Positions 4,993-18,005 of a stretch of DNA of 64,000 nt are shown here, one piece after another. Every line of letters starts with the position of its first letter. Within the stretch, counting starts at the first letter, position 1. Source of the DNA: an uncultured Actinomycetota bacterium. Lineage in GTDB: Bacteria; Actinomycetota; Actinomycetes; Mycobacteriales; Jatrophihabitantaceae. Location of the stretch: assembly GCA_963708645.1 (NCBI GenBank), contig CAVPTA010000007.1, positions 165,078 through 229,077 on the forward strand, written 5' to 3'. The position numbers and the translations under genes were made by a program. Below the pieces are notes generated by a model. It was not told where the DNA came from. It did no database searches and saw nothing but the letters and a program-made list of their open reading frames with translations.

Positions 4993-6173
4993 ACGGTCAG
5001 ATTGCGTCGGCGCACGGCCTGCAGCACGCCGATCGCGAGTCCCTGCGCGAACATCGACGATCCGCCGTAGGACACGAACGGCAGCGGCAGACCGGTGACC
5101 GGCATCAGTCCGAGGTTCATGCCGATGTTCTGGAACGCCTGGAAGGCGAACCAGCACACGATGCCGACGGCGACGAGTTGCCCGGTGCGATCGGCGGTGC
5201 GGGCGATCACCAGCCCGCGCCAGCACAGCAGAGCGAACAGCAGGATGAGCACGGCGCCACCGACGAGTCCGAACTCCTCGCCCATCACCGAGAACACGAA
5301 GTCGGTGCGCTGCTCGGGGACGTAGCCGCCGTTGGTCTGCGGCCCGTTGAACAGGCCCGTGCCGAACCAGCCCCCGTTGGCGATGGCGATGTGCGCCTGG
5401 TTGATGTTGTACGCCGCGCCCTGGGGGTCGTGCTGTGGGTTGAGGAACGCGCCGAAGCGTGCGAGTTGGTATTCGGCGAGCAGGCCCATCTTCACGACCA
5501 GGAACGCGCCGAGAATCCCGAATGCCAGCAGCCCGAGCGTCCATCGCGCGCGAACACCGGCGGCGATCAGAACGCCGAACGCGGCGGCGCCGAGCACCAT
5601 CGCCGAGCCGAGGTCGGGCTGCAACATGATCAACGCGAGCGGGACGGCGACCAGGCTGAGCGCGAGCAGCACGTCGACGGTCGTCGGCGGCAGGTCACCG
5701 CGGTCGCGGCCGCGTTGCGCGAACAGCACTGCCATACCGATGATCAGACCGAGCTTCATGAACTCCGACGGCTGGATCTCGAATCCGGCGCCGAGACGGA
5801 TCCACGCGTGCGCGCCGTTGATCGTCACACCGGCGGCGAGCACGAGCATCAACCCGAACACGCCCGCGAGGTAGAAGAACGGACCTGTGCGCCGCAGCAT
5901 GCGCGCGTTGATCCGGGACGCACCGAACATCAGGCCCGTCGCGAGCACCAGGTTGATCACGTGGCGGTAGAGATAGCCGTTCGGGTTGTTGCCGGCCGCG
6001 CGTTCGACGTCACGCGTCGCGGCCCATACGAGCACTGCGCCGATCAGGCCCAGCGCGAGTGCCACCGCGTTGAGCGTCCAGTCGTAGCGAGCGCGTCGCG
6101 CCTGATCGGGTTCGGTCAGCGGCGCCGGTAGATCGAACGGTGCGCGCGGATCACGTGCGAGCAGTTGCGTCAT
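4989..6173 (-). CDS. rodA: Rod-shape-determining SEDS-family peptidoglycan glycosyltransferase RodA (FtsW/RodA/SpoVE family)
   Basis: Motifs 'DFVFSVMGEEFGLVGG' and 'PVTGLPLPFVSYGGSS'. It is the last gene of the mreBCD-pbp2-rodA operon. Start refined to 'MTQLLARDPR', giving an ATGA overlap with the pbp2 stop. The track ORF over-extends by 157 aa. Confidence 0.85.
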   Translation of the reverse strand: MTQLLARDPRAPFDLPAPLTEPDQARRARYDWTLNAVALALGLIGAVLVWAATRDVERAAGNNPNGYLYRHVINLVLATGLMFGASRINARMLRRTGPFFYLAGVFGLMLVLAAGVTINGAHAWIRLGAGFEIQPSEFMKLGLIIGMAVLFAQRGRDRGDLPPTTVDVLLALSLVAVPLALIMLQPDLGSAMVLGAAAFGVLIAAGVRARWTLGLLAFGILGAFLVVKMGLLAEYQLARFGAFLNPQHDPQGAAYNINQAHIAIANGGWFGTGLFNGPQTNGGYVPEQRTDFVFSVMGEEFGLVGGAVLILLFALLCWRGLVIARTADRTGQLVAVGIVCWFAFQAFQNIGMNLGLMPVTGLPLPFVSYGGSSMFAQGLAIGVLQAVRRRNLTV

Positions 6174-8254
6174 TTGCTGACCTTGACCTGTGGCGCGATC
6201 TTGGGCAGCTTCGTCGCCGGGCGCAGTCCCTTGATGATCGGCTTCTTGCCGTTCATCCCGAAGATTCCGTCCCAGACGCGTTTGAGCATCGGGCCCGCAG
6301 CAGTCGCGCCGGTGCCGCCCTGCTCGACCATGCCGACGAGGACGAAGCGCGCGCGGACGTGTCCGTGCTGGTGGTAGATCGGACCCCAGGTGGACAGCCA
6401 CGACGTGTCGCCGTGTCCGTACACCTCGGCTGTGCCGGTCTTGCCGCCGATACGCGAGGCGTACGGCGAACCGATGTAGGCGAACGCGCCGGACACCGCC
6501 CAGCCGCGACCGAAGTTCAGCGAGCGTGCGATGTAGTCGAGCGTGCTCTGCTTCACCGGCACCGTGTTGCGCACCTTCGGCGTGATCGTGCGCACGACCT
6601 TGCCCTTGCCGTTGACGACGCCCCAGCCGATCTTGGGCGCCCAAATGCGCCCGCCGTTGACCAGCGCCGAGTACGCAACCGCGAGCTGCAGCGGCGACAT
6701 CGTCGTTTCGCCCTGACCGATGGCCATGTCGGCATTGTCACCGGCGCGGTACCGCCAGCCGTCTGTGCAGTTCTCGGACGCCAGCTCGGTGAGGTACGCC
6801 CGCTGCGAGAGGTTCGCGACGGTCTTGTACCCGCTACGCGCCGCCGCGCAGTACGCGTCCTTGTTCGCCTTCCACCGAGCCAGCCGGGTCTCGCGATCGG
6901 CGTAGGAACCGGGGGCCTGCTCGTTGGCCGGGAGGTCGATGTGCGGCAGCCGGCCGACGCCGAAGCTCGCGGCCATGTGCTGCAACCACTCGTGCGGTTT
7001 CTTGTGTTGCGCGATCCGGGCCTGGTCGGCGTAGTACTCGTTCGCGGCGGGGACATAGAAGTAGGTGTCGCACGAGTAGCCGAGTGCGTTCTCGAGGTTG
7101 ATGTCACCGAGCACTTCGGAGTCGTAGTTCGTCTTCACCCGACCGTCGATCGTCACCGACCCGGGGCATCCGTACAGAGTGTTGGGATTGATCTCGTGGT
7201 GCGTGACCAACGAGCTCGAGGTGATGAGTTTGAACGTCGAGCCCGGCGCGTACTGACCGGCCACCGCCCTGCTCAGCAGCGGATCGTTCGCGCTCGGCGC
7301 CGTGAGCGCGTGATAGTTCTTCGACGAGATGCCGCCGACGAACAGCTGCGGGTTGTAGTCGGGATAGCTCGCAACGGCCAGCACGCGGCCGGTCTGCGGG
7401 TCGAGCGCGACGATCGCACCGGCGGTCGCGGGCTTACCGAGTCTGCGGCTGTCGACGAGCTGCTGCGCGAGTGACTGCTCGGCCAGCCGCTGCAGCTTTG
7501 CGTTCAGACTCGTGACGAGTGTGTCGCCCTGCACCGGAGCGACGTACTTCCCGTCGGACACCGAATAGCCCTGCGGGCTCAAGTTTTTCGTCAATGAGCC
7601 ATCGACGCCGCGCAGCAGTGGGTCGTACTGCTCCTCGAGACCGGAGACACCGATGGTGTCGGCATCGGTGAGCGCCGGGTTGTTGCGCTTGTCCGCCGCG
7701 GTGATCTGTGACGTGTAACCGAGCACCTGCCCGGCAAGCGCGCCGTTCGGATAGTTCAAGTAGGTGACTGTCTGGATGGCGACGCCGGGATAGTCCTCGC
7801 GGTGTTCGGTGACAGCGAGAATCACCTTGCGTGACAGGTGTGTTGCCACCGGCACGGGCTGATAGGGCTCGCCCGTCCAGCACGGCGCCGGCACCGTCGG
7901 CGAGCACGGCCTGATCTCTGCGGCGAGCGTCGCTTGATTCTTGTGCAGCAACGTCGCGATGCGCGCCAATACCGATGCGCCGTGATCGGGCAGCACGTCG
8001 AGGCGGTCCTGGTCGATCGTCATGACAGCGACAGCAGTGTTGTCGACCAGCACGTGCCCGGTCGAGTCGACGATCAAGCCGCGCGGCGCAGGCACGACGA
8101 CCTCGCCGGGATGCAGCAGACCTGCGGTCTGTTCGGGCTTGTTCGGATCGATCAGTTGCACGTAGTACAGCCGGGCCAGCAGCGTCACAACCATCGACGC
8201 GACAAGCACGACGATGATGGTGAACCGGCGAGCGCTGAGCGGACGTGCTCTCAT
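6170..8254 (-). CDS. mrdA: Penicillin-binding protein 2 (class B transpeptidase, elongasome)
   Basis: Signal anchor 'FTIIVVLVASMVVTLLARLYYVQLID', a dimerization domain, and transpeptidase motifs 'STFK', 'SxN', 'KTGT' ('GGKTGTAEV'). Start refined to 'MRARPLSARRF' (ATGA overlap with the mreD stop). The upstream 69 aa of the track ORF are Arg-rich read-through. Confidence 0.85.
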   Translation of the reverse strand: MRARPLSARRFTIIVVLVASMVVTLLARLYYVQLIDPNKPEQTAGLLHPGEVVVPAPRGLIVDSTGHVLVDNTAVAVMTIDQDRLDVLPDHGASVLARIATLLHKNQATLAAEIRPCSPTVPAPCWTGEPYQPVPVATHLSRKVILAVTEHREDYPGVAIQTVTYLNYPNGALAGQVLGYTSQITAADKRNNPALTDADTIGVSGLEEQYDPLLRGVDGSLTKNLSPQGYSVSDGKYVAPVQGDTLVTSLNAKLQRLAEQSLAQQLVDSRRLGKPATAGAIVALDPQTGRVLAVASYPDYNPQLFVGGISSKNYHALTAPSANDPLLSRAVAGQYAPGSTFKLITSSSLVTHHEINPNTLYGCPGSVTIDGRVKTNYDSEVLGDINLENALGYSCDTYFYVPAANEYYADQARIAQHKKPHEWLQHMAASFGVGRLPHIDLPANEQAPGSYADRETRLARWKANKDAYCAAARSGYKTVANLSQRAYLTELASENCTDGWRYRAGDNADMAIGQGETTMSPLQLAVAYSALVNGGRIWAPKIGWGVVNGKGKVVRTITPKVRNTVPVKQSTLDYIARSLNFGRGWAVSGAFAYIGSPYASRIGGKTGTAEVYGHGDTSWLSTWGPIYHQHGHVRARFVLVGMVEQGGTGATAAGPMLKRVWDGIFGMNGKKPIIKGLRPATKLPKIAPQVKVSK

Positions 8255-8775
8255 CGCACGTCCTGCAGCACGAGCACCGGACGCGGTGCGCGCAACCTGT
8301 CGGTGCGCAGGAACAACCGCACGAGCGGCACGACGGCGAGCGCGAGCAGCCCGTCGAGCAGGGTCGCCGGAATCGCATACCGCAGCGCGTCGGTCGCTTG
8401 CGCGCCGTCTGCGCCGAGCACGGCCAGCGCGAGCGTCGACACGACCGAGGCCGCGCCGCACACGACGGTGGTGACCAGGACGTCATGTCTGATGCGGGCG
8501 TTGGGCGCATTGAGCAGTCCGCAGACAAGACCGACCCCGAGCCAGCACAGCGCCAGCACGCCGGCGGGATGCTCCGAGCCGAGATCGGTGATCAGCCCGG
8601 CCGCGAACCCGAACGCGATGCCGGCACCCGGACCGTCGACAACGGCGATCGCTGCGACCAGCAGAGCCGGCAGGCTTGCCGGGATCGTGTCGGCGAGCGG
8701 ACCGACGAGGGTCGCCTGCAGTACGAGTGCGGTCAGCAGCGCGGCGATCGCGGCTGCGATTCGGGCGCGCGTCAT
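8251..8775 (-). CDS. mreD: Rod shape-determining protein MreD
   Basis: ~174-aa polytopic membrane protein located between mreC and pbp2. Start refined to 'MTRARIAAAIAALL', directly after the mreC stop. Confidence 0.7.
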   Translation of the reverse strand: MTRARIAAAIAALLTALVLQATLVGPLADTIPASLPALLVAAIAVVDGPGAGIAFGFAAGLITDLGSEHPAGVLALCWLGVGLVCGLLNAPNARIRHDVLVTTVVCGAASVVSTLALAVLGADGAQATDALRYAIPATLLDGLLALAVVPLVRLFLRTDRLRAPRPVLVLQDVR

Positions 8776-8776
8776 G

Positions 8777-9619
8777 TCAGCGACCGCCCGCGGCGATCGA
8801 TGCGGTGCCGTGCCGTGACACAACGATGCCGACGATGTCGAGTGCACTCGCCGAAACAGTCGGGTCGACGGCGGCGATGACCGTCCCGTCGGCGGAGGCG
8901 CGCACCGTACGCACCGTCCCGATGGAGAGGCCGGGTGCGTAGCTGCTCGCGCCTTCCGGACCGGTCGCGAGCGCGTCACCGGCACGGACCTGCGCCGTCG
9001 GGTCGAGCGGGCGGAACGCGAATCCGTTGCGTCCGTTGCCGGTCACCACGCCGAGCTGACCGGTGCGCAGATCGCGAGCACCGACGCCCGACCCCGGGTC
9101 GATGGCGAGCAGCACTACAGCCGTCGATGAGTCGGCGTGCAGCACGCGTCCGACGAGCCCGGCACCGTCGGTGACAGTCTGCCCGGCACGCACGCCGTTG
9201 GCCGTGCCCGCCGCGACCGTGACCGTGTAGTCGAAACCCCCGGCGGCGCTCGTCGCGACGACCCGCGTCGGCACGATCCGGAAACCGTCGTGCGTGGCCG
9301 ACAGGCGCAGCCGCGCCAGCTGGGCCTCGGTGTGTCGGTCGAGGCGGGCATTGGCCAGTTGTTGGCGCAGCAGGGTGTTCTGCTGCTCGAGTGCGTGCAG
9401 TCGCGATTCGTCCGAACCGGCGCGTGGGATGCCTTGCAGGAACCGGCGGACGGGTCCGAGCACCGAGTCGGTGCCGCGGTACAGCGAACCGAGCGCGCCG
9501 CGCACGCCGCCGTGCGCGGATTGGAGGCTGGTGCCGCCCAGATCGAGCGCGACGAAACAAGCGGCAACGGCCGCCAGCACGATTGCCGCGACGCGCTGGC
9601 GTCGGGTCAGGCGGCGCAT
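8777..9619 (-). CDS. mreC: Rod shape-determining protein MreC
   Basis: 280 aa with an N-terminal TM segment, a coiled-coil region ('LEQQNTLLRQQLANARLD') and a beta-rich C-terminal domain. Position immediately downstream of mreB. Confidence 0.85.
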   Translation of the reverse strand: MRRLTRRQRVAAIVLAAVAACFVALDLGGTSLQSAHGGVRGALGSLYRGTDSVLGPVRRFLQGIPRAGSDESRLHALEQQNTLLRQQLANARLDRHTEAQLARLRLSATHDGFRIVPTRVVATSAAGGFDYTVTVAAGTANGVRAGQTVTDGAGLVGRVLHADSSTAVVLLAIDPGSGVGARDLRTGQLGVVTGNGRNGFAFRPLDPTAQVRAGDALATGPEGASSYAPGLSIGTVRTVRASADGTVIAAVDPTVSASALDIVGIVVSRHGTASIAAGGR

Positions 9620-9737
9620 CGCTGGATGCCGCTGAGAACGTTCGTCGGACCGCTCGTGGGCCTCTCGCTCCGCTCGGGCCCGCTCGCGGACCGATCCGCT
9701 CCTTGCGTCGCGGACTGTGCTTCTTTGCTCTTCGCGC

Positions 9738-9765
9738 GAGCGCTCATCGCGGAGCGCTCATCGCT
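9738..9765. repeat. Tandem direct repeat, 14-nt unit 'gagcgctcatcgcg' x2, spanning the mreB stop codon and mreB-mreC spacer
   Basis: Seen directly in sequence: 'gcgcGAGCGCTCATCGCgGAGCGCTCATCGCttg'. Confidence 0.4.
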
Positions 9766-10825
9766 TGTAACCGTCGACGACGACCTTTTGGAGCTGATCG
9801 AAGTGCTCTACGACAGTGGCGGTGCCGAGCACGACCGAGTCGAGCGGACGGTCGGCGACGATGACGGGGATGCCGATCTCGTGCTGCAGGCGGGCATCCA
9901 GTCCGCGCAGCAGGGCGCCACCGCCGGTCAGCACGATGCCGCGCTGGACGAGGTCGCCGGCCAACTCCGGCGGGCAACGGTCGAGGGTCGTGCGCACCGA
10001 GGCGACGATGCGACCGAGCGGCAGCTCCATCGCCTTGCGCAGTTCGTCACTCGAGACAGTGATGTTGCGCGGCAGCCCGGTTCCTACGTCCCGACCGCGG
10101 ATCTCGGCCTTGCGCGGGCCGGCGACGGGGAACGCCGAACCCACCGAGATCTTGAGCTCCTCGGCCGTCCGCTCGCCGATCAGCAGCGAGAACTCACCGC
10201 GGATGTGGTCGACGATCGCCATGTCGAGCGCGTTGCCCGCGACTCGCAGCGACGTCGACGCGACGATCCCGCCGAGCGCGAGTACCGCGACCTCGGTCGT
10301 CCCGCCGCCGATGTCGACGACCATCGAACCCGCAGGCTGGTTCACGGGCAGGCCGGCGCCGATCGCGGCGGCCATCGGTTCGGGAATGATGTGCACCCGC
10401 CGGGCGCCGGCGGCGTACGCCGACTCGGACACCGCGCGCTGCTCGACGCTGGTGATCGCGGACGGGACGCAGATGACGATGCGGGGGCCGGTGAACGCGC
10501 CCCGGCGCTTGAGCACCTTGCGGACGAAGTAGCGCAACATCTCGGCAGTGACTTCGAAGTCGGCGATGACACCGTCGCGCAGCGGACGGATCGCGCGGAT
10601 GTGGTCGGGAGTGCGGCCGATCATCCGCTTGGCCTCGGCGCCGACGGCGACGACCGCGTTGGTCTGCACATCGAGTGCGACCACCGACGGCTCGTCGAGC
10701 AGGATGCCTCGTCCACGCGCGTAGACGAGGGTGTTGGCCGTCCCCAGATCGATGGCGAGGTCGCCGCCGAGCAGGTCGACCCCACGCTGAGTACCCAGCG
10801 ACCGGGCGATCGACGTCAGACTCAC
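9758..10825 (-). CDS. mreB: Rod shape-determining actin homolog MreB
   Basis: 355 aa with actin-fold signatures 'LAIDLGTANTLVY', 'VVDIGGGTTEVAV', 'GIVLTGGGALLRGLD'. Confidence 0.9.
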   Translation of the reverse strand: MSLTSIARSLGTQRGVDLLGGDLAIDLGTANTLVYARGRGILLDEPSVVALDVQTNAVVAVGAEAKRMIGRTPDHIRAIRPLRDGVIADFEVTAEMLRYFVRKVLKRRGAFTGPRIVICVPSAITSVEQRAVSESAYAAGARRVHIIPEPMAAAIGAGLPVNQPAGSMVVDIGGGTTEVAVLALGGIVASTSLRVAGNALDMAIVDHIRGEFSLLIGERTAEELKISVGSAFPVAGPRKAEIRGRDVGTGLPRNITVSSDELRKAMELPLGRIVASVRTTLDRCPPELAGDLVQRGIVLTGGGALLRGLDARLQHEIGIPVIVADRPLDSVVLGTATVVEHFDQLQKVVVDGYKR

Positions 10826-10953: not shown

Positions 10954-11373
10954 TTAGAGGGTCGGGAACCAGAGCGCGATCTCGCGCGCGGCGGACTCGG
11001 GTGAGTCGGAGCCGTGCACCAGGTTCTGCTGCACCTTCAAGCCCCAGTCGCGACCCAGGTCGCCGCGGATCGTCCCGGGCAGCGCGGCCGTCGGATCGGT
11101 CGCCCCGGCCAGTGCGCGGAATCCCTCGATCACCCGCTCCCCCTCAGCCACGATCGCCGCGACCGGGCCGGAGAGCATGAACTCGACGAGTGCCTCGTAG
11201 AACGGCTTGCCGACGTGCTCGGCGTAATGCTCGGCGAGCAGCTCGGGCGTCGCGGTGCGCAGGTCGAGGGCGGCGAGGCGGTAGCCCTTGGCCTCCACCC
11301 GGCGAAGCACCTCGCCGACCGCACCGCGGTTGACGCCGTCCGGCTTGACGAGGATGAGGGTGCGCTCGGCCAT
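10954..11373 (-). CDS. ndk: Nucleoside diphosphate kinase
   Basis: 'MAERTLILVKPDGV...NLVHGSDSPESAAREIALWF'. Start refined to the second Met (139 aa). Confidence 0.9.
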   Translation of the reverse strand: MAERTLILVKPDGVNRGAVGEVLRRVEAKGYRLAALDLRTATPELLAEHYAEHVGKPFYEALVEFMLSGPVAAIVAEGERVIEGFRALAGATDPTAALPGTIRGDLGRDWGLKVQQNLVHGSDSPESAAREIALWFPTL

Positions 11374-11397
11374 GCCAGCGAGATTACTGACCACCGA

Positions 11398-11799
11398 TCA
11401 GTGGCAGTTGGCCGGTGCAGTCACCTGCGCCGAGCGGGCACTGGTCCAGTTCCGGTAGACGCTCACCATCGTGATCACGGTCCCCGCGGGGACGGCCGAG
11501 GTGGGGCTGTTGCTGGTGGTCGTGCGGCCCGCGACGGTCTGTGACGCCTCGCTGCCGCCGTATGCGCCATAGATGATGTACCCGGTCGCGTACGCGTCAG
11601 CGGTCGCCGTCCAGCTGATCGTCACCCGCTGCGCACTGCCCAAGCACTTGACGCTCAGCGACGTCGGTGCGCTGAGCGTGTCACTCGAGACCTTCATCGC
11701 GGAACTGGACGAGGTCGTGAACCGAGCGCTGGCGACTGCCGGCCACGCGACCACGACGATCGCGACCGCCGCGAGAAACGCGGCGCGGAACAGCTTCAC
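11398..11799 (-). CDS. Small exported protein (~133 aa) with a SipW-cognate-like signal peptide; likely accessory or minor subunit of the TasA-like module
   Basis: Signal 'VKLFRAAFLAAVAIVVVAWPAVASA' followed by 'RFTTSSSSA', similar to the 'GSFTSTTSAS' segment of the neighbouring TasA-like protein. Ser/Thr-rich mature part. GTG start with GTGA overlap on the sipW stop. Confidence 0.5.
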   Translation of the reverse strand: MKLFRAAFLAAVAIVVVAWPAVASARFTTSSSSAMKVSSDTLSAPTSLSVKCLGSAQRVTISWTATADAYATGYIIYGAYGGSEASQTVAGRTTTSNSPTSAVPAGTVITMVSVYRNWTSARSAQVTAPANCH

Positions 11800-12437
11800 G
11801 CCGCGAGCTCCTCCGGACGGCGTGGACGCCAGATCGACAGGAGCAGGCAGGCGAGGACGCCGAACGGCAGCACCCGGGTCAGCAGCATGGACACGATCGG
11901 CTCTCGCAAGAAACGGATCACGGCCCCGGCCGCGGGAACGACGCCGCGCACCTGCCACACCGTGCCGGCACCGGCCCTGGCCGTCCACGGGTCATCGCCG
12001 TTGTTGGCGTCGCCCTTGGTACGGAACAGCGCGCTGCCGTCCTTGAGGTGACGGACCCAAACGACGCGGTGGCTCTCGACGCGGTGGTCTTCGACCGGGA
12101 TCTGATAGGTGATGATCTGGCCGATCCGGATGTCGGTCGCGTGCTCCGGCGTGTCGACGATGACGTCGCCAGGGACGATGCCCGGCGACATGCTCCCGGT
12201 CAGCATGGTCGCGGTGCGGTAGTGCAACACGCGGGGTCCGACCGTCATCGCCAGAAGAGCGAGAACGGCGCAGGTGAGCGCGAGGCTGCCGAGCAGGTTG
12301 ATCGACCGGCGCGCGATGCGGCGCCACCGCGGCGTGATGCTCGCGGCAACCGGTGCGGTCATGGGAGCTCTCCTGGGGGTGGGATCTGCGAGATGTTCGT
12401 GAATACCCCTGCCGGGCGACCCGCCGAAGCGGGCCAC
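11796..12437 (-). CDS. sipW: Signal peptidase I, SipW/archaeal-ER type (S26B)
   Basis: N- and C-terminal TM anchors and catalytic Ser in 'MLTGSMSPGIVPGDVIV'. The C-terminal TM 'LLTRVLPFGVLACLLLSIW' is characteristic of SipW-type rather than LepB-type enzymes. True start may be the internal 'MTAPVAAS' Met. Confidence 0.75.
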   Translation of the reverse strand: MARFGGSPGRGIHEHLADPTPRRAPMTAPVAASITPRWRRIARRSINLLGSLALTCAVLALLAMTVGPRVLHYRTATMLTGSMSPGIVPGDVIVDTPEHATDIRIGQIITYQIPVEDHRVESHRVVWVRHLKDGSALFRTKGDANNGDDPWTARAGAGTVWQVRGVVPAAGAVIRFLREPIVSMLLTRVLPFGVLACLLLSIWRPRRPEELAA

Positions 12438-12475
12438 CCGGCTGGCACGGGGGAGGTGGTGCGCGCCGGGCTAGG

Positions 12476-13102
12476 TCAGTGGGCCGAGGCGGTGCGCTGG
12501 GTGCCGGTGAAGGCGAAGTTGATCGTCGAAGCCGCACCCTGCAGGGCGTTGCCGGCGCCGGTCGGGAAGCTGAGCGTGACCCGCAGGACGTCGTTGCTGC
12601 CCGCGGTGAGAGCCGCCAGGTTGTTCAGGGCGAGGTTCGAGCCGATGACCGGCACCGACGCGAGGACGGTGCTGATCGTGCCGGCGCCGCTGCAGGTGTA
12701 GGTGTACGCCGGCGCGGTGCCGGCCTCGGTCCAGCTCGTCGAGCACTTGTCGATCGTCATCTGCAGACCATTGGTGGCGTCGGTGTCCAGCGCCGAGGAC
12801 GCGGTCGCTGTCGTGGTGAGGGTGACGGCGCTCAGGGCCTGGCTGCCGGAGTTCGACAGCTTGACGACGCGCTGGATGGTGTCACCCGGAACGATGCCGG
12901 ACGCGGCGACCGTGAGGCGGTTGTCGGTGCCACCGGCGGTGCCGAGGCCGATCGTGACCGTGCCGGCGCTGACCGCCTGGCTGGCCGAGGTCGTCGAGGT
13001 GAATGAACCGAACGTGCCGAGACCGGCGGCGCCTGCGGCAGCCGCGACGAGGGCAGCGCTGGCGAGCAGCTTCGATTTGGTGGACAGGACGCGTGCGGAC
13101 AT
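12476..13102 (-). CDS. TasA/CalY-like exported protein with SipW-cognate class signal peptide (actinobacterial 'alternate signal-mediated exported protein' family)
   Basis: Refined start 'MSARVLSTKSKLLASAALVAAAAGAAGLGTFGSFTSTTSAS'. The 'GxGTxxxF[ST]' motif after the h-region matches the SipW-cognate signal class. The mature protein is Thr/Ser/Gly/Ala-rich and beta-like. The upstream 108 aa of the track ORF are read-through. Confidence 0.65.
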   Translation of the reverse strand: MSARVLSTKSKLLASAALVAAAAGAAGLGTFGSFTSTTSASQAVSAGTVTIGLGTAGGTDNRLTVAASGIVPGDTIQRVVKLSNSGSQALSAVTLTTTATASSALDTDATNGLQMTIDKCSTSWTEAGTAPAYTYTCSGAGTISTVLASVPVIGSNLALNNLAALTAGSNDVLRVTLSFPTGAGNALQGAASTINFAFTGTQRTASAH

Positions 13103-13437
13103 TCGGAACTCCAGTGAGTGAGGTGTGCCGCACATCGCGGCTGGCTGTGGTTTGCGGCAACCGACCGGCTTGGCCGAGAAGTGCCTACGTAAATTTCGTG
13201 TGAGATCAGAATGGAACCTCGACCTCAGTTCACACCGACTTAACACGCAAGAGTTCCGACAGATTGAACGCGCAACAATTGACTGGGAATTGAGGGACCA
13301 ACCGACCGAAACGGGCGTCTGGACCCCGTACCGGCGCTCGCACCCCCGGTATACGCGTGTCCGGCTGTACCGGGAGACCCAACGATCGCTAACCTCAAGA
13401 CCGTGAGAGCCCACGAAGTCGCGCAACGGAGTGCAGC

Positions 13438-14184
13438 GTGAGCGAACACGACCGTGATGCGGTCGTGATCGAGGACGACCCAGATGTGCGCGCTCTGCTG
13501 GTCGAACTGCTCCAACAGAGCGGGTTTGCCGTCACCGACTGCTCGGCTGGCGCGGACGGATTGCGTGCGGTCCGCGACCGTGACCCCGACCTGGTGACCC
13601 TCGACCTGAACCTGCCCGACCTCGACGGCATCGAGGTGTGCCGGCGCTTGCGCGAGACCAGCGAGGCCTACGTCATCATGCTCACCGCCCGCCCGGACGA
13701 GATCGACCGTCTGGTCGGACTCGAGACCGGCGCCGATGACTACCTGACCAAGCCGTTCAGCCCGCGCGAACTGCGCGCCCGCGTCGCGGCGATGATGCGC
13801 CGCCCGCGTCGGCGCGGCGCCGCCCCGGCTCCGGCTGCCGCCGCGCCCGAACCTGACCAGAGCGAGATCATGCGCCTGGGCGAGCTCGAGGTCGACCTCG
13901 AGGGACGCCTCGCGCACCTGTCCGGGTCGGAACTGCCGCTGACCCGCATCGAGTTCGATCTGCTGGCAACGCTGCTCAGCGGGCCGCGCCGCGTGTGGCC
14001 GCGCGAGACGCTGCTGCGCACCGTCTGGGGCACCGAATGGGCCGGCGACGGGCACCTCGTCGAGGTGCACATGGGCAACCTGCGCCGCAAACTCGGCGAC
14101 GACCCACGCAACGGGCGCTACATCCGTACCGTCCGCGGCGTCGGGTACCGACTCGGCACGGGTGCCGCGTCGGACGCTGAGTGA
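13438..14184 (+). CDS. OmpR/PhoB-family two-component response regulator
   Basis: Receiver domain ('VVIEDDPDVRALL...DLVTLDLNLPDLDG...ETGADDYLTKPFSPREL') plus winged-helix domain ('VHMGNLRRKL...RTVRGVGYRL'). GTG start. Confidence 0.85.
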   Translation: MSEHDRDAVVIEDDPDVRALLVELLQQSGFAVTDCSAGADGLRAVRDRDPDLVTLDLNLPDLDGIEVCRRLRETSEAYVIMLTARPDEIDRLVGLETGADDYLTKPFSPRELRARVAAMMRRPRRRGAAPAPAAAAPEPDQSEIMRLGELEVDLEGRLAHLSGSELPLTRIEFDLLATLLSGPRRVWPRETLLRTVWGTEWAGDGHLVEVHMGNLRRKLGDDPRNGRYIRTVRGVGYRLGTGAASDAE

Positions 14185-15416
14185 CGGATCCCGGCGAGCA
14201 CCTTCGCATGACGCGCGCGGCCGCGGCGAGCGAGCAGGAGCGATTGGCGGCACTGGCTGCCTACGACATCATCGGCGCCGCCGGCGACGATCCGGTGGTC
14301 GCCGACCTCGAGGGGTTGTGCGAGGCCGCGGCCACGGTCGCGGGCGTGTCGACCGCGGTGGTCAACCTGTCCGATGACCGCCTCCAACATCAGGTTGCGG
14401 CGTTCGGCGTCAACCCGCAGGCGTGCCGACGCGACGAGTCCATGTGCCAGACGACGCTCGCCGGCGGGCGCGACATCTACGTGAGCGACGCAGCCGCTGA
14501 TCCGCGCTTCGCCACGTCCCCGTGGGTCGACGGCAAACTCGCCCGGATCCGCTTCTACTGCTCGGTGATCCTCCGCTCGCCGCAGGGTCACGCGATCGGC
14601 ACCTTGTGCGTGTTCGACGAAACGGCACGCGAGCTGGGAGATCAAGGGCTGCGCACGATCGGGCTGCTCGCTAACCAGGTCATCGACGTGCTCGAGCTGC
14701 GGCTGCGCACTCGCGAGCTGCAGCGCGCCAATGTCGAGCTCACTCGCTCGGCCGACCGGCTGGCGTCCTTCGCCGGCCAGGTGAGCCACGACCTGAAGGC
14801 GCCGATCACCGCGATCATCGGCTTCACCGAATTGCTCAGCGATATGGACGAGATCGCTGACGACACGACGATCAGCAACTACGTCGGTCGGTGCAGCTCG
14901 GCCGCCAAACGGATGCTTGCGATGATCGACGACCTGCTCGCGTTCGCTCGCGTGGGCGGTTCGCTGACGATGGTCGAGAATCCGATCGAGGCGCTGGTAG
15001 CCGAGGTCGTCGCCGATCTGGGCGCGACAGCGGCCGGCGCGACGGTAACGGCCAGCGGAGCAGACATCGTCGCCGACACCTCGCAACTACGCGCCCTGCT
15101 GCAGAACCTGATCGGGAACGCGCTCGTCTACCGCGGCGACGATGCGCCCGTGGTCGAGGTGTTCAGCGACCAGATCGGCGACAACGCGATCCTGCGTGTC
15201 GTCGACAACGGCAGCGGCATCGCGCCGGAGAGCCGCGAGGACGTCCTGCGCCCGTTGGTGCGCTTGCGCAAGGAACTGCCCGGAGCCGGATTGGGACTGG
15301 CCGTCTGCGTCCGGATCGCTGCCGCGCATGGTGGGACGATCCGCATCGACAGTGCACCAGGCGGCGGCACGGCGGCGATCGTGACGTTGCCGCTCACCGA
15401 TCAGGGCAAGGACTGA
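14181..15416 (+). CDS. Soluble sensor histidine kinase with N-terminal GAF domain
   Basis: GAF-like region, H-box 'FAGQVSHDLKAPITAI', N-box 'LLQNLIGNALVY', G-boxes 'DNGSGI' and 'GAGLGLAV'. No TM segments. GTGA overlap with the response-regulator stop. Confidence 0.85.
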   Translation: MTDPGEHLRMTRAAAASEQERLAALAAYDIIGAAGDDPVVADLEGLCEAAATVAGVSTAVVNLSDDRLQHQVAAFGVNPQACRRDESMCQTTLAGGRDIYVSDAAADPRFATSPWVDGKLARIRFYCSVILRSPQGHAIGTLCVFDETARELGDQGLRTIGLLANQVIDVLELRLRTRELQRANVELTRSADRLASFAGQVSHDLKAPITAIIGFTELLSDMDEIADDTTISNYVGRCSSAAKRMLAMIDDLLAFARVGGSLTMVENPIEALVAEVVADLGATAAGATVTASGADIVADTSQLRALLQNLIGNALVYRGDDAPVVEVFSDQIGDNAILRVVDNGSGIAPESREDVLRPLVRLRKELPGAGLGLAVCVRIAAAHGGTIRIDSAPGGGTAAIVTLPLTDQGKD

Positions 15417-15617: not shown

Positions 15618-15998
15618 TCAGGCCGTGCGAGCAAGCAGCTGGTCGACCCGGTGCACGAGTTCGCGCGGGCTGAACGGCTTGGGCAGGTAGTCGTCACATC
15701 CGGCCGCGAATCCTGCGGCGACGTCTTCGGTGGACGACTCGGCGCTGATGAGCAGGATCGGGCTCGACGCCGTCTCGCGGCGCGCCTTGAGCTGACGGCA
15801 GACCTCGAGGCCACTCATGTCGGGCATCCGGACATCGAGCACCACGATGTGCGGCGTCTCGCGCTCGGCGGCCGCCAGGGCACGCACTCCGCCGTCGACG
15901 GCCTCGGCGTGGAACCCGGCCTTCGTCAGGATCGTGGAGACGAGAGCGCGGATGTCTTCATCGTCGTCAGCGATCAGCACGCTGCTGGCGATGGCCAT
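15618..15998 (-). CDS. Single-domain (CheY-like) response regulator receiver protein
   Basis: 'VLIADDDEDIRALV...IVVLDVRMPDMSGLEV...LISAESSTEDV...GCDDYLPKPFSPREL', 126 aa, no output domain. Start refined to 'MAIASSVL'. Confidence 0.8.
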   Translation of the reverse strand: MAIASSVLIADDDEDIRALVSTILTKAGFHAEAVDGGVRALAAAERETPHIVVLDVRMPDMSGLEVCRQLKARRETASSPILLISAESSTEDVAAGFAAGCDDYLPKPFSPRELVHRVDQLLARTA

Positions 15999-16089
15999 TG
16001 ACGTCCTGCCTCTCGGTCGTTGCATTCCGGTCGAGTGCAACTTCGTCTGCCGTGGTGGTGAGCCGGGTAAGGCTGGCGAAAGTTAGGTG

Positions 16090-16260: not shown

Positions 16261-16656
16261 TCAGGACGACAGAAGTCGCCAACCTGTCGGCGTCCCCAGC
16301 AGTTGGTGTCGGAGCCAGAGCAGGCGGCCCCAGACCATCGCGAACAGCGCCGCGATGATCAGTTGCGCGATCAGCAACACCCCGCTGAGCAGAAAGAGCA
16401 CCTGCACGACCGAGCCCAGGCCGATCCCCCACGGACGGCGCACGAGTCCGGCCGCGACGATCATCACGACGGCGAGGCCGACCAGCACAAGCGTCTTGGT
16501 CACGCCCAACCCGCCGGAACTGAAGGCGAGCGCGCGCGGAACGAGCAGCGTGACCACGGCCTCGAGTCCGAGGATCGCCGCCAGCGCACCGCGGGTGGCT
16601 CGATCGGCGCGGTGGACGCGCTCGGGATCGTCGAGCTCTTCGTTGTTGTCGCTCAT
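16261..16656 (-). CDS. DUF4233-family small membrane protein (conserved folC-downstream gene)
   Basis: 131 aa, 'MSDNNEELDD...', three hydrophobic segments. ATGA overlap with the folC stop. Same position as the membrane-protein gene between folC and ndk in other actinobacteria. Confidence 0.7.
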   Translation of the reverse strand: MSDNNEELDDPERVHRADRATRGALAAILGLEAVVTLLVPRALAFSSGGLGVTKTLVLVGLAVVMIVAAGLVRRPWGIGLGSVVQVLFLLSGVLLIAQLIIAALFAMVWGRLLWLRHQLLGTPTGWRLLSS

Positions 16657-18005
16657 CGGGCGAGCAGCAGCCGCGCCTCGCCGGCGGTGACCACCGAGCC
16701 GATGACCAGGACTCCGGTGCCTGACAGCAGGTCGTCGCCGGTGTCCTCGGCCAGCCGCACGGCGGTTTCGATCGCGTCGTCCAGGCGCGGTTCGACGCTG
16801 ACCCGGTCGGAGCCGAAGATCTCGACCGCGGCGGCGGCGAGTTCGTCGGCGGGCACTGCACGATCGGAACTGTTCTGGGTCACGACGATCTCGTCGGCAA
16901 CGGGCTCGAGGCGCTCGAGGATGCCGGCGACGTCCTTGTCGGACATCACGGCGACGACCGCGACCAGGCGACGGAAGTCGAACGCCTCGCCGATTGCCGC
17001 GACGCTGGCACTGACGCCGTGCGGGTTGTGCGCAGCGTCGACAAGGATCGTCGGGGCCGAGCGGACGGCCTCGAGGCGTCCCGGCGACCGCACGGCAGCG
17101 AAGGCCGCGCGAATGATGCCGATGTCGAGGCTGCCGCTGTCGGCGTCGGCGCCGAGGAACGCCTCGACCGCGGCGAGGGCGAGCGCGGCGTTCTCGGCCT
17201 GGTGCGCGCCGTGCAACGGCAGGAAGATCTCGTCGTACACGCCACCGAGGCCCTGGATCGTCAGCACCTGCCCGCCGACGGCGACCCGGCGGTCGGCCAC
17301 ACCGAACTCGAGCCCCTCGCGCGCGACGGCGGCGCCGACGCTCGCCGCGCGGCGCAGCAGTTGTTCGGCTGCCTCCGGCGGTTGCGCAGCGAGGATCGCA
17401 GTCGCGCCGGCCTTGATGATGCCGGCCTTCTCGCCGGCGATCGCGTCGACGGTCGTCCCGAGATATTCGGTGTGGTCGAGATCGATCGGGGTCACGACGG
17501 CGACCTCGGCGTCGAGCACGTTCGTGTTGTCCCAAGCACCGCCCATGCCGACCTCGACGACCGCAACGTCGACGGGGGTGTCGGCGAAGATCATGTACGC
17601 CATGGCGGTCACGATCTCGAAGAACGACAGCGGGACGTCGAACTGCCCGTCGACCAGTTCGATGTACGGCGCGAGCTCGCGGTAGGTCTCGACGAAGGTG
17701 CGGTCACTTATCGGCTGACCGTCCACCACGATGCGCTCGGTGACAGAGGTGAGATGCGGGCTGGTGTAGCGGCCCGAACGGATACCGAAGCCGCGGACGA
17801 GTTCATCGATCATGCGCGCGGTGCTCGTCTTGCCGTTCGTACCGGTCAGATGGATGCCGCGGTATGCGCGTTGCGGGTCGCCGAGCAGACCGACGAGGGC
17901 CTCCATGCGTTCGTTCGTCGGATGGATGTGGCCTTCGCCGCGACGTCCGAAGATGGACGCCTCGACCGTGCGCAGCTGCGTCGCGTACTTCTCGCGCTCG
18001 GTCAT
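16653..18005 (-). CDS. folC: Bifunctional dihydrofolate synthase / folylpolyglutamate synthase
   Basis: 450 aa with the Mur-ligase fold 'HLTGTNGKTSTARM', 'VVEVGMGGAWDNTNV', 'ILVDAAHNPHGV'. Confidence 0.9.
   Translation of the reverse strand: MTEREKYATQLRTVEASIFGRRGEGHIHPTNERMEALVGLLGDPQRAYRGIHLTGTNGKTSTARMIDELVRGFGIRSGRYTSPHLTSVTERIVVDGQPISDRTFVETYRELAPYIELVDGQFDVPLSFFEIVTAMAYMIFADTPVDVAVVEVGMGGAWDNTNVLDAEVAVVTPIDLDHTEYLGTTVDAIAGEKAGIIKAGATAILAAQPPEAAEQLLRRAASVGAAVAREGLEFGVADRRVAVGGQVLTIQGLGGVYDEIFLPLHGAHQAENAALALAAVEAFLGADADSGSLDIGIIRAAFAAVRSPGRLEAVRSAPTILVDAAHNPHGVSASVAAIGEAFDFRRLVAVVAVMSDKDVAGILERLEPVADEIVVTQNSSDRAVPADELAAAAVEIFGSDRVSVEPRLDDAIETAVRLAEDTGDDLLSGTGVLVIGSVVTAGEARLLLAR

Follow-up and report, generated by a model that had tools for sequence, protein, structure and literature searches.

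Does a short operon of a soil actinobacterium encode a fibre of the kind known from Bacillus, and what would its smallest secreted protein do in such a fibre? The question is raised by three genes that follow one another in the same orientation on the minus strand, within positions 11398-13102 of a stretch of 64,000 nucleotides (hereafter the window) from contig CAVPTA010000007.1, which belongs to an uncultured Actinomycetota bacterium of the Jatrophihabitantaceae. In order of reading, they encode a TasA-like protein (P1), a signal peptidase of the SipW type, and a small secreted protein (P3). We propose that together they form an operon whose product is a TasA-type fibre, its subunits linked by donor-strand exchange, and that P3, in the manner of TapA, initiates or caps it; to this reading we give a probability of about 0.6.

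The filaments of TasA, as seen by electron cryo-microscopy (cryo-EM) and nuclear magnetic resonance (NMR), are made of folded subunits, each of which gives its N-terminal strand to the next one (PMC9674648, PMC10151520). The protein TapA joins a TasA-like N-terminal strand to a complete immunoglobulin-like (Ig-like) fold, and nucleates TasA filaments by strand complementation: it gives the first strand and speeds assembly, and the end of a filament is its only possible place (PMC10151520, PMC9674648). At the present locus, P3 follows the logic of TapA with an unrelated domain of the fibronectin type III (FN3) fold, and P1 keeps the residues of the subunit interface; we therefore propose the following scheme.

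P1 and P3 would be exported through Sec, and the peptidase, with its residues Ser57, His98 and Asp118, would trim their unusual signal peptides. The freed N-terminus of P1, SFTSTTSASQAVSAGTV, would become an extra beta-strand in the beta-sandwich of the next P1, giving a stable filament as in Bacillus TasA, and assembly would require neither a chaperone-usher pair nor a sortase. P3 would carry the same kind of strand on a complete FN3 domain: since no groove is left in this domain for an incoming strand, P3 could donate but not receive, and would therefore most likely complement the first P1, at one end of the filament. Its role would then be that of an initiator, as for TapA; a cap, a tip or an anchor are the alternatives.

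The three genes

The DNA of the window is 65-70% GC, and the genes of the locus are the following.

12476..13102, minus strand: P1, precursor of a putative major fibre subunit of the TasA family, 208 amino acids; ATG start, with GGAG ahead.
11796..12362, minus strand: sipW, signal peptidase I of the SipW type (endoplasmic reticulum (ER)/archaeal type), 188 amino acids; the open reading frame covers 11796-12437, up to a GTG at 12437.
11398..11799, minus strand: P3, secreted accessory protein, 133 amino acids; GTG start, with GGAGGA ahead.

This set of genes had been proposed in an initial annotation made from the sequence alone, and all three open reading frames are found on the minus strand where it placed them. 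The start of sipW is likely the ATG at 12362, which lies 8 nt 3' of an AGGAG and yields the 188 residues; the gap between P1 and sipW is 113 nt, or 38 nt with the GTG at 12437 as the start. The initial annotation also described sipW as coupled by a GTGA. Such a 4-nt overlap exists (gcggcGTGAagctg), but it joins the stop of sipW to the GTG start of P3, and not P1 to sipW. The description of the mature proteins as rich in Thr, Ser and Gly agrees with the counts: in mature P1 and mature P3, Ser and Thr make up 30-33% of the residues, and Ser, Thr, Gly and Ala 55-56%. The two closest loci in other genomes, L001 and L002, come from metagenome-assembled genomes (MAGs) of uncultured Actinomycetota, in which P1 is 97% and 96% identical.

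A putative subunit of the TasA family

P1 passes the Pfam family PF12389 (Peptidase_M73/TasA/camelysin) with 39.3 bits against a gathering score of 22.5, over profile positions 8-193 of 196. A database search returns more than 3000 homologues, the closest named ones being labelled 'TasA family protein' by NCBI, in Sinomonas, Nostocoides, Intrasporangium and various MAGs. The TasA-like identity first given to the protein of 208 residues is thus borne out. With 20.3 bits on the Bacillus TasA equivalog of NCBIfam, NF046066, P1 falls far under the cut-off of 450, and is therefore a member of the family rather than an orthologue of Bacillus TasA. We are highly confident in this identity, and equally in that of the peptidase.

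The AlphaFold monomer model of P1, built on 68 relatives, is a globular beta-sandwich with a predicted local distance difference test (pLDDT) above 90 in the core, and has the jelly-roll/beta-sandwich fold of TasA-like proteins; its residues 31-50, of low pLDDT, are left unplaced. The structural match to solved folds is moderate (template modelling (TM) scores of 0.45-0.49, 14-17% identity), and the nearest folds all belong to donor-strand fibres. Among the 68 relatives, residues G27, T30, F34, S36, T38, S39, G47, V49, G73, D74 and Q202 are invariant, and P72 is nearly so, being present in at least 90%. A profile alignment to the sequence of 8AUR places P72 on P62 of TasA and Q202 on Q232, and F34 corresponds, by its position after the cleavage site, to F29. 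In TasA these three residues form, with F200, a 'proline box' at the protomer interface of the filament, which according to Roske et al. is better conserved than any other part of TasA/camelysin proteins (PMC10151520). The N-terminus of the precursor would be divided as follows.

13007..13102, minus strand: signal peptide of P1, residues 1-32, with cleavage predicted between TFG and SF; basic n-region, hydrophobic stretch 12-31, alignment to TIGR04088.
12956..13006, minus strand: mature N-terminus of P1, SFTSTTSASQAVSAGTV, residues 33-49, predicted donor strand from conservation, low pLDDT and correspondence to beta0.

The second of these segments corresponds to strand beta0 of Bacillus TasA (A28-L44), which inserts into the next protomer (PMC10151520).

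It is natural to ask whether P1 polymerises at all. It could have the camelysin/TasA fold, be secreted and processed by SipW, and yet remain a monomer, acting for example as a protease, an antimicrobial or a protein of the spore or cell surface: the Pfam family bears the name of a peptidase, JGI calls relatives 'spore coat-associated protein N', Bacillus TasA exceeds mature P1 by about 60 residues, and the structural scores given above are moderate. Yet the most conserved residues of P1 are those of the TasA protomer interface and of the N-terminal strand, this strand finds no place in the monomer model, and the nearest solved folds are all fibres with exchanged strands. A metalloprotease, in particular, is rejected: with a single His and no HExxH metal site, P1 lends no support to this reading. 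A monomeric P1 seems to us improbable, and the formation of a fibre, by analogy with TasA, probable.

The nature of the fibre is a second point. The initial annotation spoke of amyloid-like fibres, as did an older literature of reviews in which TasA is a functional amyloid, and the mature proteins are indeed beta-rich and Ser/Thr-rich. However, cryo-EM and solid-state NMR now describe native TasA filaments as folded, strand-exchanged subunits that thioflavin T (ThT) does not stain (PMC9674648, PMC10151520), and the core of the P1 model is a confident globular sandwich. Cross-beta fibres detectable with Congo red or ThT are thus very improbable here, and the word amyloid is better abandoned.

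A peptidase of the SipW type

The peptidase passes the archaeal/ER-type signal peptidase I model, TIGR02228, with 60.6-61.1 bits against 51.85. It stays under the bacterial LepB-type model, TIGR02227 (11.8-12.1 bits against 47), and under the Bacillus SipW equivalog, NF046067 (47.9-48.5 bits against 190). Its best matches among sequences of solved structure are human SEC11C and SEC11A (E-value 5e-8), whose alignment locates the predicted catalytic residues.

12192-12194, minus strand: Ser57.
12069-12071, minus strand: His98.
12009-12011, minus strand: Asp118.

The motifs around these residues are close to those of SEC11C/A: GSMSP for GSMEP at Ser57, SHRV for VHRV at His98, and TKGDANNGDD for TKGDNNxVDD at Asp118. 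His98 stands where enzymes of the LepB type have a Lys. Two hydrophobic helices, at residues 19-46 and 155-178, are found on the Kyte-Doolittle scale (windows of 19 residues, mean of at least 1.6). The assignment to SipW rather than LepB is therefore upheld, with TIGR02228 passed, a Ser/His/Asp set of residues instead of Ser-Lys, and both an N-terminal and a C-terminal helix. The initial annotation had named what would overturn it: no match to SipW-cognate signal or TasA-like families, or a peptidase with a LepB-type Ser/Lys dyad and a single N-terminal anchor. Since TIGR02228 and PF12389 are both passed, and His98 and the two helices are present, neither was found. Judging by the structure of the operon and the Bacillus precedent, this peptidase presumably processes the precursors of P1 and P3.

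Some SipW homologues carry an additional tail. At loci L006:8689-9720, L030:8629-9717 and L033:975-1973, in Arthrobacter and Oryzihumus, a cytoplasmic extension of about 130 residues follows the second helix, with weak matches to Pfam Hpt (histidine phosphotransfer), one of 20.7 bits (E-value 5e-4) and one of 14.5 bits, the cut-off being 24.6; another residue seems to occupy the usual site of the phospho-His. These three loci also have a response regulator and a kinase close by. The SipW of the window has no such tail.

P3: a complete domain with a free N-terminus

P3 has no match in Pfam or NCBIfam, and NCBIfam has no family for its relatives, nor for the alternative accessory or major proteins of the other loci described below. 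Its own family, collected by an exhaustive HMMER search, has 141 representatives at 50% identity, mostly of 125-160 residues and almost all actinobacterial. Their source names are 'hypothetical protein', with one 'SipW-like signal peptide' (P0284, JGI) and a few FN3 or cellobiosidase. Pfam fn3 (PF00041) matches 21 of 94 aligned relatives, with a best E-value of 7.4e-7, and does not match the P3 of the window.

The fold is clearer than the sequence. The AlphaFold2 model of P3 has a mean pLDDT of 89, rising to 94-98 over residues 41-130, and shows a complete FN3 sandwich; a Foldseek search of the PDB returns FN3 domains for all top matches, with probability 1.00. Residues 18-45 are modelled as coil, and the mature N-terminus, a disordered stretch of some 20 residues, has a pLDDT of 72-78. 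Three parts can be distinguished.

11725..11799, minus strand: signal peptide of P3, residues 1-25, with cleavage predicted between ASA and RF; hydrophobic stretch 1-28, A-x-A-x-aromatic conservation.
11674..11724, minus strand: mature N-terminus of P3, RFTTSSSSAMKVSSDTL, residues 26-42, donor-strand-like; coil in the AlphaFold2 model, in hhalign register with P1 33-49.
11401..11673, minus strand: predicted FN3 domain of P3, residues 43-133, with conserved Cys52 and Cys132; AlphaFold2 model and Foldseek.

The fold is FN3, and not the V-set Ig of TapA. Nonetheless, as far as sequence comparison and modelling can tell, P3 shares with TapA a flexible N-terminus that resembles a donor strand, borne by a complete Ig-like domain. 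The initial annotation saw in P1 and P3 two beta-like polymerising proteins: we keep this for P1, while P3, an FN3 domain complete in itself and preceded by a free N-terminal strand, does not look like a second polymerising subunit.

Each secreted protein has exactly two cysteines conserved throughout its family, Cys120 and Cys137 in P1 (12689-12745) and Cys52 and Cys132 in P3 (11401-11646), a pattern that suggests one disulfide in each.

The predicted cleavage sites are alike. Of the 94 relatives of P3, 77 keep A23, 86 keep A25, and 86 have an aromatic residue at position 27 (F in 74, Y in 6, W in 6). The resulting pattern, A-x-A followed after cleavage by x-aromatic, is the arrangement of Bacillus TasA, cut between TWA and AF, and of P1. 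Both precursors are thus predicted to be cut one residue before a conserved aromatic, for P1 by analogy with Bacillus TasA. The two signal blocks singled out in the initial annotation, GLGTFGSFTSTTSAS (P1 residues 27-41) and ASARFTTSSSSA (P3 residues 23-34), are both conserved, and do not owe their presence to chance. The models that it named are a more mixed case: TIGR04088 (SipW-dependent-type signal peptide) exists and aligns to the N-terminus of P1 over its full length (positions 1-34 of 34, E-value 0.0016, 18.6 bits for a cut-off of 19), but not to P3, and TIGR04089 (alternate-signal exported protein, RER_14450 family) matches neither P1 nor P3 at an E-value of 1 or less. Export by the twin-arginine translocation (Tat) pathway was also considered; neither signal peptide has a twin arginine.

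The N-termini of P1 and P3 vary together

If P3 gives a strand to P1 in place of another P1, its N-terminus should resemble that of P1. When whole family profiles are compared with hhalign, residues 21-42 of P3 align to residues 28-49 of P1, pairing F27 with F34, V37 with V44 and T41 with T48. Restricted to the mature N-termini, the alignment covers 16 columns in register, with a score of 17.4 and a P-value of 1.5e-5. Shuffling the columns of P3 gives, over 300 shuffles, a mean score of 7.4 with a standard deviation of 1.7 and a maximum of 15.4: since none of the 300 reaches 17.4, the likeness exceeds what Ser/Thr composition alone produces.

A finer comparison opposes the N-termini of cognate pairs, coming from the same locus, to permuted pairs. 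The N-termini were extracted by anchoring on hidden Markov models (HMMs), which yields 48-56 pairs. For 48 automatically extracted non-redundant pairs, the mean BLOSUM score is 21.6, against 19.5 +/- 0.6 for permuted ones (p 0.001); the test gives p 0.0125 when the aromatic position is excluded, and p 0.017 when locus L081 is left out. In that locus, TasA has EWSTSVSKSQTVTAGSL and P3 has DWNVSASRSQTVATGTL; similarly, in L084, a TasA paralogue has GETNTFAAGT and P3 has AETNTFATHVL. The aromatic residue itself follows the major subunit. With the 48 pairs and four added by hand, P3 has the same residue in 5/5 cases where the major subunit has W or Y, and has F in 43/47 cases where the major subunit has F.

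Other loci

The wider distribution of the three genes was read in 79 loci, obtained from the best 80 of 451 TasA matches to the P1 profile, with taxa that include Arthrobacter, Sinomonas, Oryzihumus, Marmoricola, Gaiellaceae, Solirubrobacterales and Microthrixaceae. Counts were taken on the 69 loci with at least 3 kb downstream of tasA: sipW adjoins tasA in 54 of them, a homologue of P3 lies downstream in 45, both are present in 35, and a second tasA in 15.

A reverse search started from nine distant relatives of P3 (30-45% identity), whose upstream content was read. Three loci, L080, L081 and L086, repeat the order tasA-sipW-P3, and in L084 three TasA-like paralogues precede P3. In four others (L082:2911-4444, L083:80-1112, L085:1914-3450 and L087:575-1973), P3 follows two small secreted proteins of 147-194 residues, with overlaps of 4 nt. 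These proteins match nothing in Pfam or NCBIfam and have no adjoining sipW; their N-termini, of the form A-x-[FW]-[ST]-[ST]-[ST]-G-x-G, are like that of their own P3, and they may be another, unannotated class of strand-exchange subunits. The 2-kb contig of L088 contains neither tasA nor sipW; there, the neighbours of P3 are ndk and a response regulator.

A different arrangement is seen in Gaiellaceae (L005:9182-10315, L041:8990-10375). There, sipW is followed by a secreted protein of 330-460 residues that matches no family and has a TasA-like N-terminus, ALAAFSS, and then by one or two divergent TasA paralogues in place of P3. What the loci have in common is an N-terminal strand like that of TasA, borne by globular bodies that vary.

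One locus is out of place: L035 (WNZI01000001.1), labelled Vibrio cholerae strain 35D, has a tasA-sipW pair of the actinobacterial type with 60% protein identity to P1. This contig is probably a contaminant of, or mis-binned in, the Vibrio cholerae assembly.

Strand donor or co-substrate

There is always the possibility that P1 and SipW form a TasA fibre system to which P3 is foreign. P3 would then be merely another secreted substrate of SipW, a small FN3 protein of the surface or matrix that binds, for example, polysaccharide or cell wall, and the likeness of the N-termini would stem from the preference of a common peptidase. A series of observations weighs in this direction, and against P3 as a donor of strands. 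Some concern the family models: P3 has no match to the TapA model TIGR04087, which one of its 94 relatives reaches at an E-value of 0.064, and none to TIGR04088 at an E-value of 10 or less, and P1 itself falls 0.4 bits short of the cut-off of the latter. FN3 is a common module of carbohydrate-associated proteins, and several relatives are named cellobiosidase or FN3. Finally, in L082, L085, L087 and L088, P3 occurs without an adjacent sipW or a recognisable tasA.

Others concern the N-terminal comparison itself. Both N-termini are Ser/Thr-rich, their likeness peaks near the cleavage site, and it could reflect shared recognition by one peptidase. As T41 and L42 of P3 lie at the well-folded edge of the FN3 domain, the fold itself may account for part of the match in register. 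When an HMM built on residues 31-55 of P1 is run against the P3 family, the P3 N-terminus of the window scores 0.3 only, and 11 of 94 relatives exceed 5 bits, against 7 of 940 shuffles, a weak enrichment. A first test of cognate pairs, on 19 close loci whose N-termini were extracted by regular expression with several mis-extractions, gave p 0.47. No phylogenetic correction enters the co-variation tests, and the changes from F to W or Y may amount to only three independent events; in L086 the residues disagree, with F in TasA and W in P3. The synteny frequencies, drawn from the best 80 of 451 matches, are tilted towards close relatives.

What a common peptidase accounts for less well is the extent of the likeness. 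In register, it reaches 16 residues into the mature protein, much more than a signal peptidase usually reads, and cognate pairs have in common motifs of their lineage deep in the mature part, such as SKSQTV with SRSQTV, and ETNTFA. Moreover, a disordered segment tethered to a complete fold is the arrangement of TapA. We thus consider a P3 that is only co-secreted to be unlikely, more plausible nevertheless than a monomeric P1. The positive assignment is a finer one: by analogy with TapA, the role of P3 as initiator, cap or tip seems to us evenly poised.

Neighbourhood and regulation

On its two sides, the operon is flanked by the following features.

10954-11394: ndk, with a likely start at 11373, 24 nt past the stop of P3.
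13103..13437, no strand: divergent intergenic region of 335 bp between P1 and the response regulator, presumed to hold promoter and regulatory sequences from its conserved blocks.
13438-14184, plus strand: response regulator of the OmpR type (Pfam Response_reg and Trans_reg_C).
14181-15416, plus strand: soluble GAF histidine kinase (Pfam GAF_2, HisKA and HATPase_c).
15618-16040: lone receiver protein, followed by folC.

No terminator was found between P3 and ndk, the scan of 11200-13600 for consensus promoters and terminators being empty; with 24 nt between the stop of P3 and the ATG of ndk, the latter may be partly read through from the fibre operon. A scan of the window with Rfam returned two distant tRNAs only.

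Blocks of the divergent region, for example GAGGTTAGC and CGGTACAGC.GGACACG, are kept in L001, in L002, and in L024, from a more distant MAG of the Jatrophihabitantaceae. The region contains three TCAAT repeats spaced by 11-15 nt, to which the OmpR-type regulator might bind. It shows no sigma-70 consensus, and repeat finding gave short, unconvincing repeats only.

The arrangement of ndk, fibre operon and regulatory genes is also that of L001, L002 and L024. In other genera, about 19 of the 79 loci have, within 8 kb of tasA, a match to the regulator with an E-value of at most 1e-50. By its adjacency, the two-component system is a candidate regulator of the fibre operon.

The folC-ndk-mreB-mreC-mreD-PBP2 neighbourhood (window 6170-10825 and 16653-18005) is, apart from the fibre operon and the two-component genes that it contains here, a conserved one among actinobacteria. 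These genes give the impression of having been inserted between folC and ndk.

Significance

In the literature that we found, donor-strand TasA fibres are characterised by experiments only in Bacillus and a few archaea, and actinobacterial homologues only by bioinformatics. The initial annotation, for which the actinobacterial counterparts were essentially uncharacterised, was thus fair as regards experiments, and went too far as regards their presence: the distribution of PF12389 in Actinobacteriota is published (PMC9245690), and a joint Bacillota/Actinomycetota cluster of TasA has been reported (bioRxiv 10.64898/2026.01.04.697558). A limited search found no experimental study of an actinobacterial TasA system; since its results by genus name were swamped by unrelated papers, the absence of such work is unproven. 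The same limited search found no description of the family of FN3 accessory proteins, which appears to be undescribed. The new part is the proposed FN3 strand donor and its co-variation with the neighbouring subunit; P1 and SipW are what a specialist would expect.

Should P3 trigger the polymerisation of P1, the principle of TapA, a strand donor on a complete Ig-like fold, would have arisen or been retained with an unrelated domain. A family now annotated as hypothetical would receive a name, and the locus, a minimal version with three genes in which an FN3 protein of 108 residues meets a subunit of 175, would offer a compact scaffold that assembles by itself and in which FN3 is a natural module for display. 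Should P3 be inactive in polymerisation, the locus would be one more 'TasA family protein' with its signal peptidase.

A bolder conjecture extends the reading to the whole family of P3, about 140 clusters at 50% identity. Its members would be dedicated primers, caps or tips of chaperone-free donor-strand fibres in Actinomycetota, with a strand that co-evolves with the adjacent major subunit, including the unannotated subunits of L082, L083, L085 and L087. We offer it tentatively, with more doubt than belief. If true, Actinobacteria would have a modular, sortase-independent system resembling pili, in which a variable globular head is borne by an exchangeable donor strand, and which, in some genera, may be wired to a phosphorelay through the HPt-like tail of SipW. 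Actinobacteria are major soil bacteria, with tractable genera such as Arthrobacter and Sinomonas.

Relation to known systems

The closest system is the tapA-sipW-tasA operon of Bacillus subtilis. The major subunits belong to the same Pfam family and have the same fold, with the F, P and Q of the proline box kept at the interface. In both, the gene of a dedicated ER/archaeal-type peptidase lies between two genes of secreted proteins and overlaps, in translation, that of the accessory protein; and this protein, in both, joins a subunit-like N-terminal strand to a complete Ig-like domain. The differences are as many. The order here is tasA-sipW-accessory; mature P1 has about 175 residues, against 234, and possesses the conserved pair Cys120/Cys137, whereas Bacillus TasA has no disulfide of the kind proposed for P1 and P3. 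On the Bacillus equivalogs, P1 reaches 20 of the 450 bits and SipW 48 of 190. Mature P3 is an FN3 domain protein of 108 residues with no sequence match to TapA, which consists of a V-set Ig and a long C-terminal tail. The neighbouring regulators are a two-component system of the OmpR type instead of SinR/SinI, and the host is a high-GC actinobacterium.

Archaeal fibres of the TasA superfamily, such as the bundling pili AbpA/AbpB of Pyrobaculum, and the cannulae CanA/CanX and AbpX of Pyrodictium, mostly lack a dedicated SipW, or have a peptidase with ten transmembrane segments. They have no detectable sequence similarity to P1, and their accessory proteins are larger, with several domains. The chaperone-usher pili of Gram-negative bacteria (Fim/Pap) are unrelated in evolution: they rely on a periplasmic chaperone and an outer-membrane usher, of which there are none here, and the present host is a monoderm.

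Lastly, the sortase-assembled pili of Actinobacteria are, like the fibre proposed here, surface fibres of Ig-like domains in high-GC Gram-positive bacteria. The region examined has no adjacent sortase gene, and neither P1 nor P3 has an LPXTG motif or a C-terminal anchor. The sortase pili are held by isopeptide cross-links, whereas the bond predicted between the subunits of the present fibre is a non-covalent exchange of strands.

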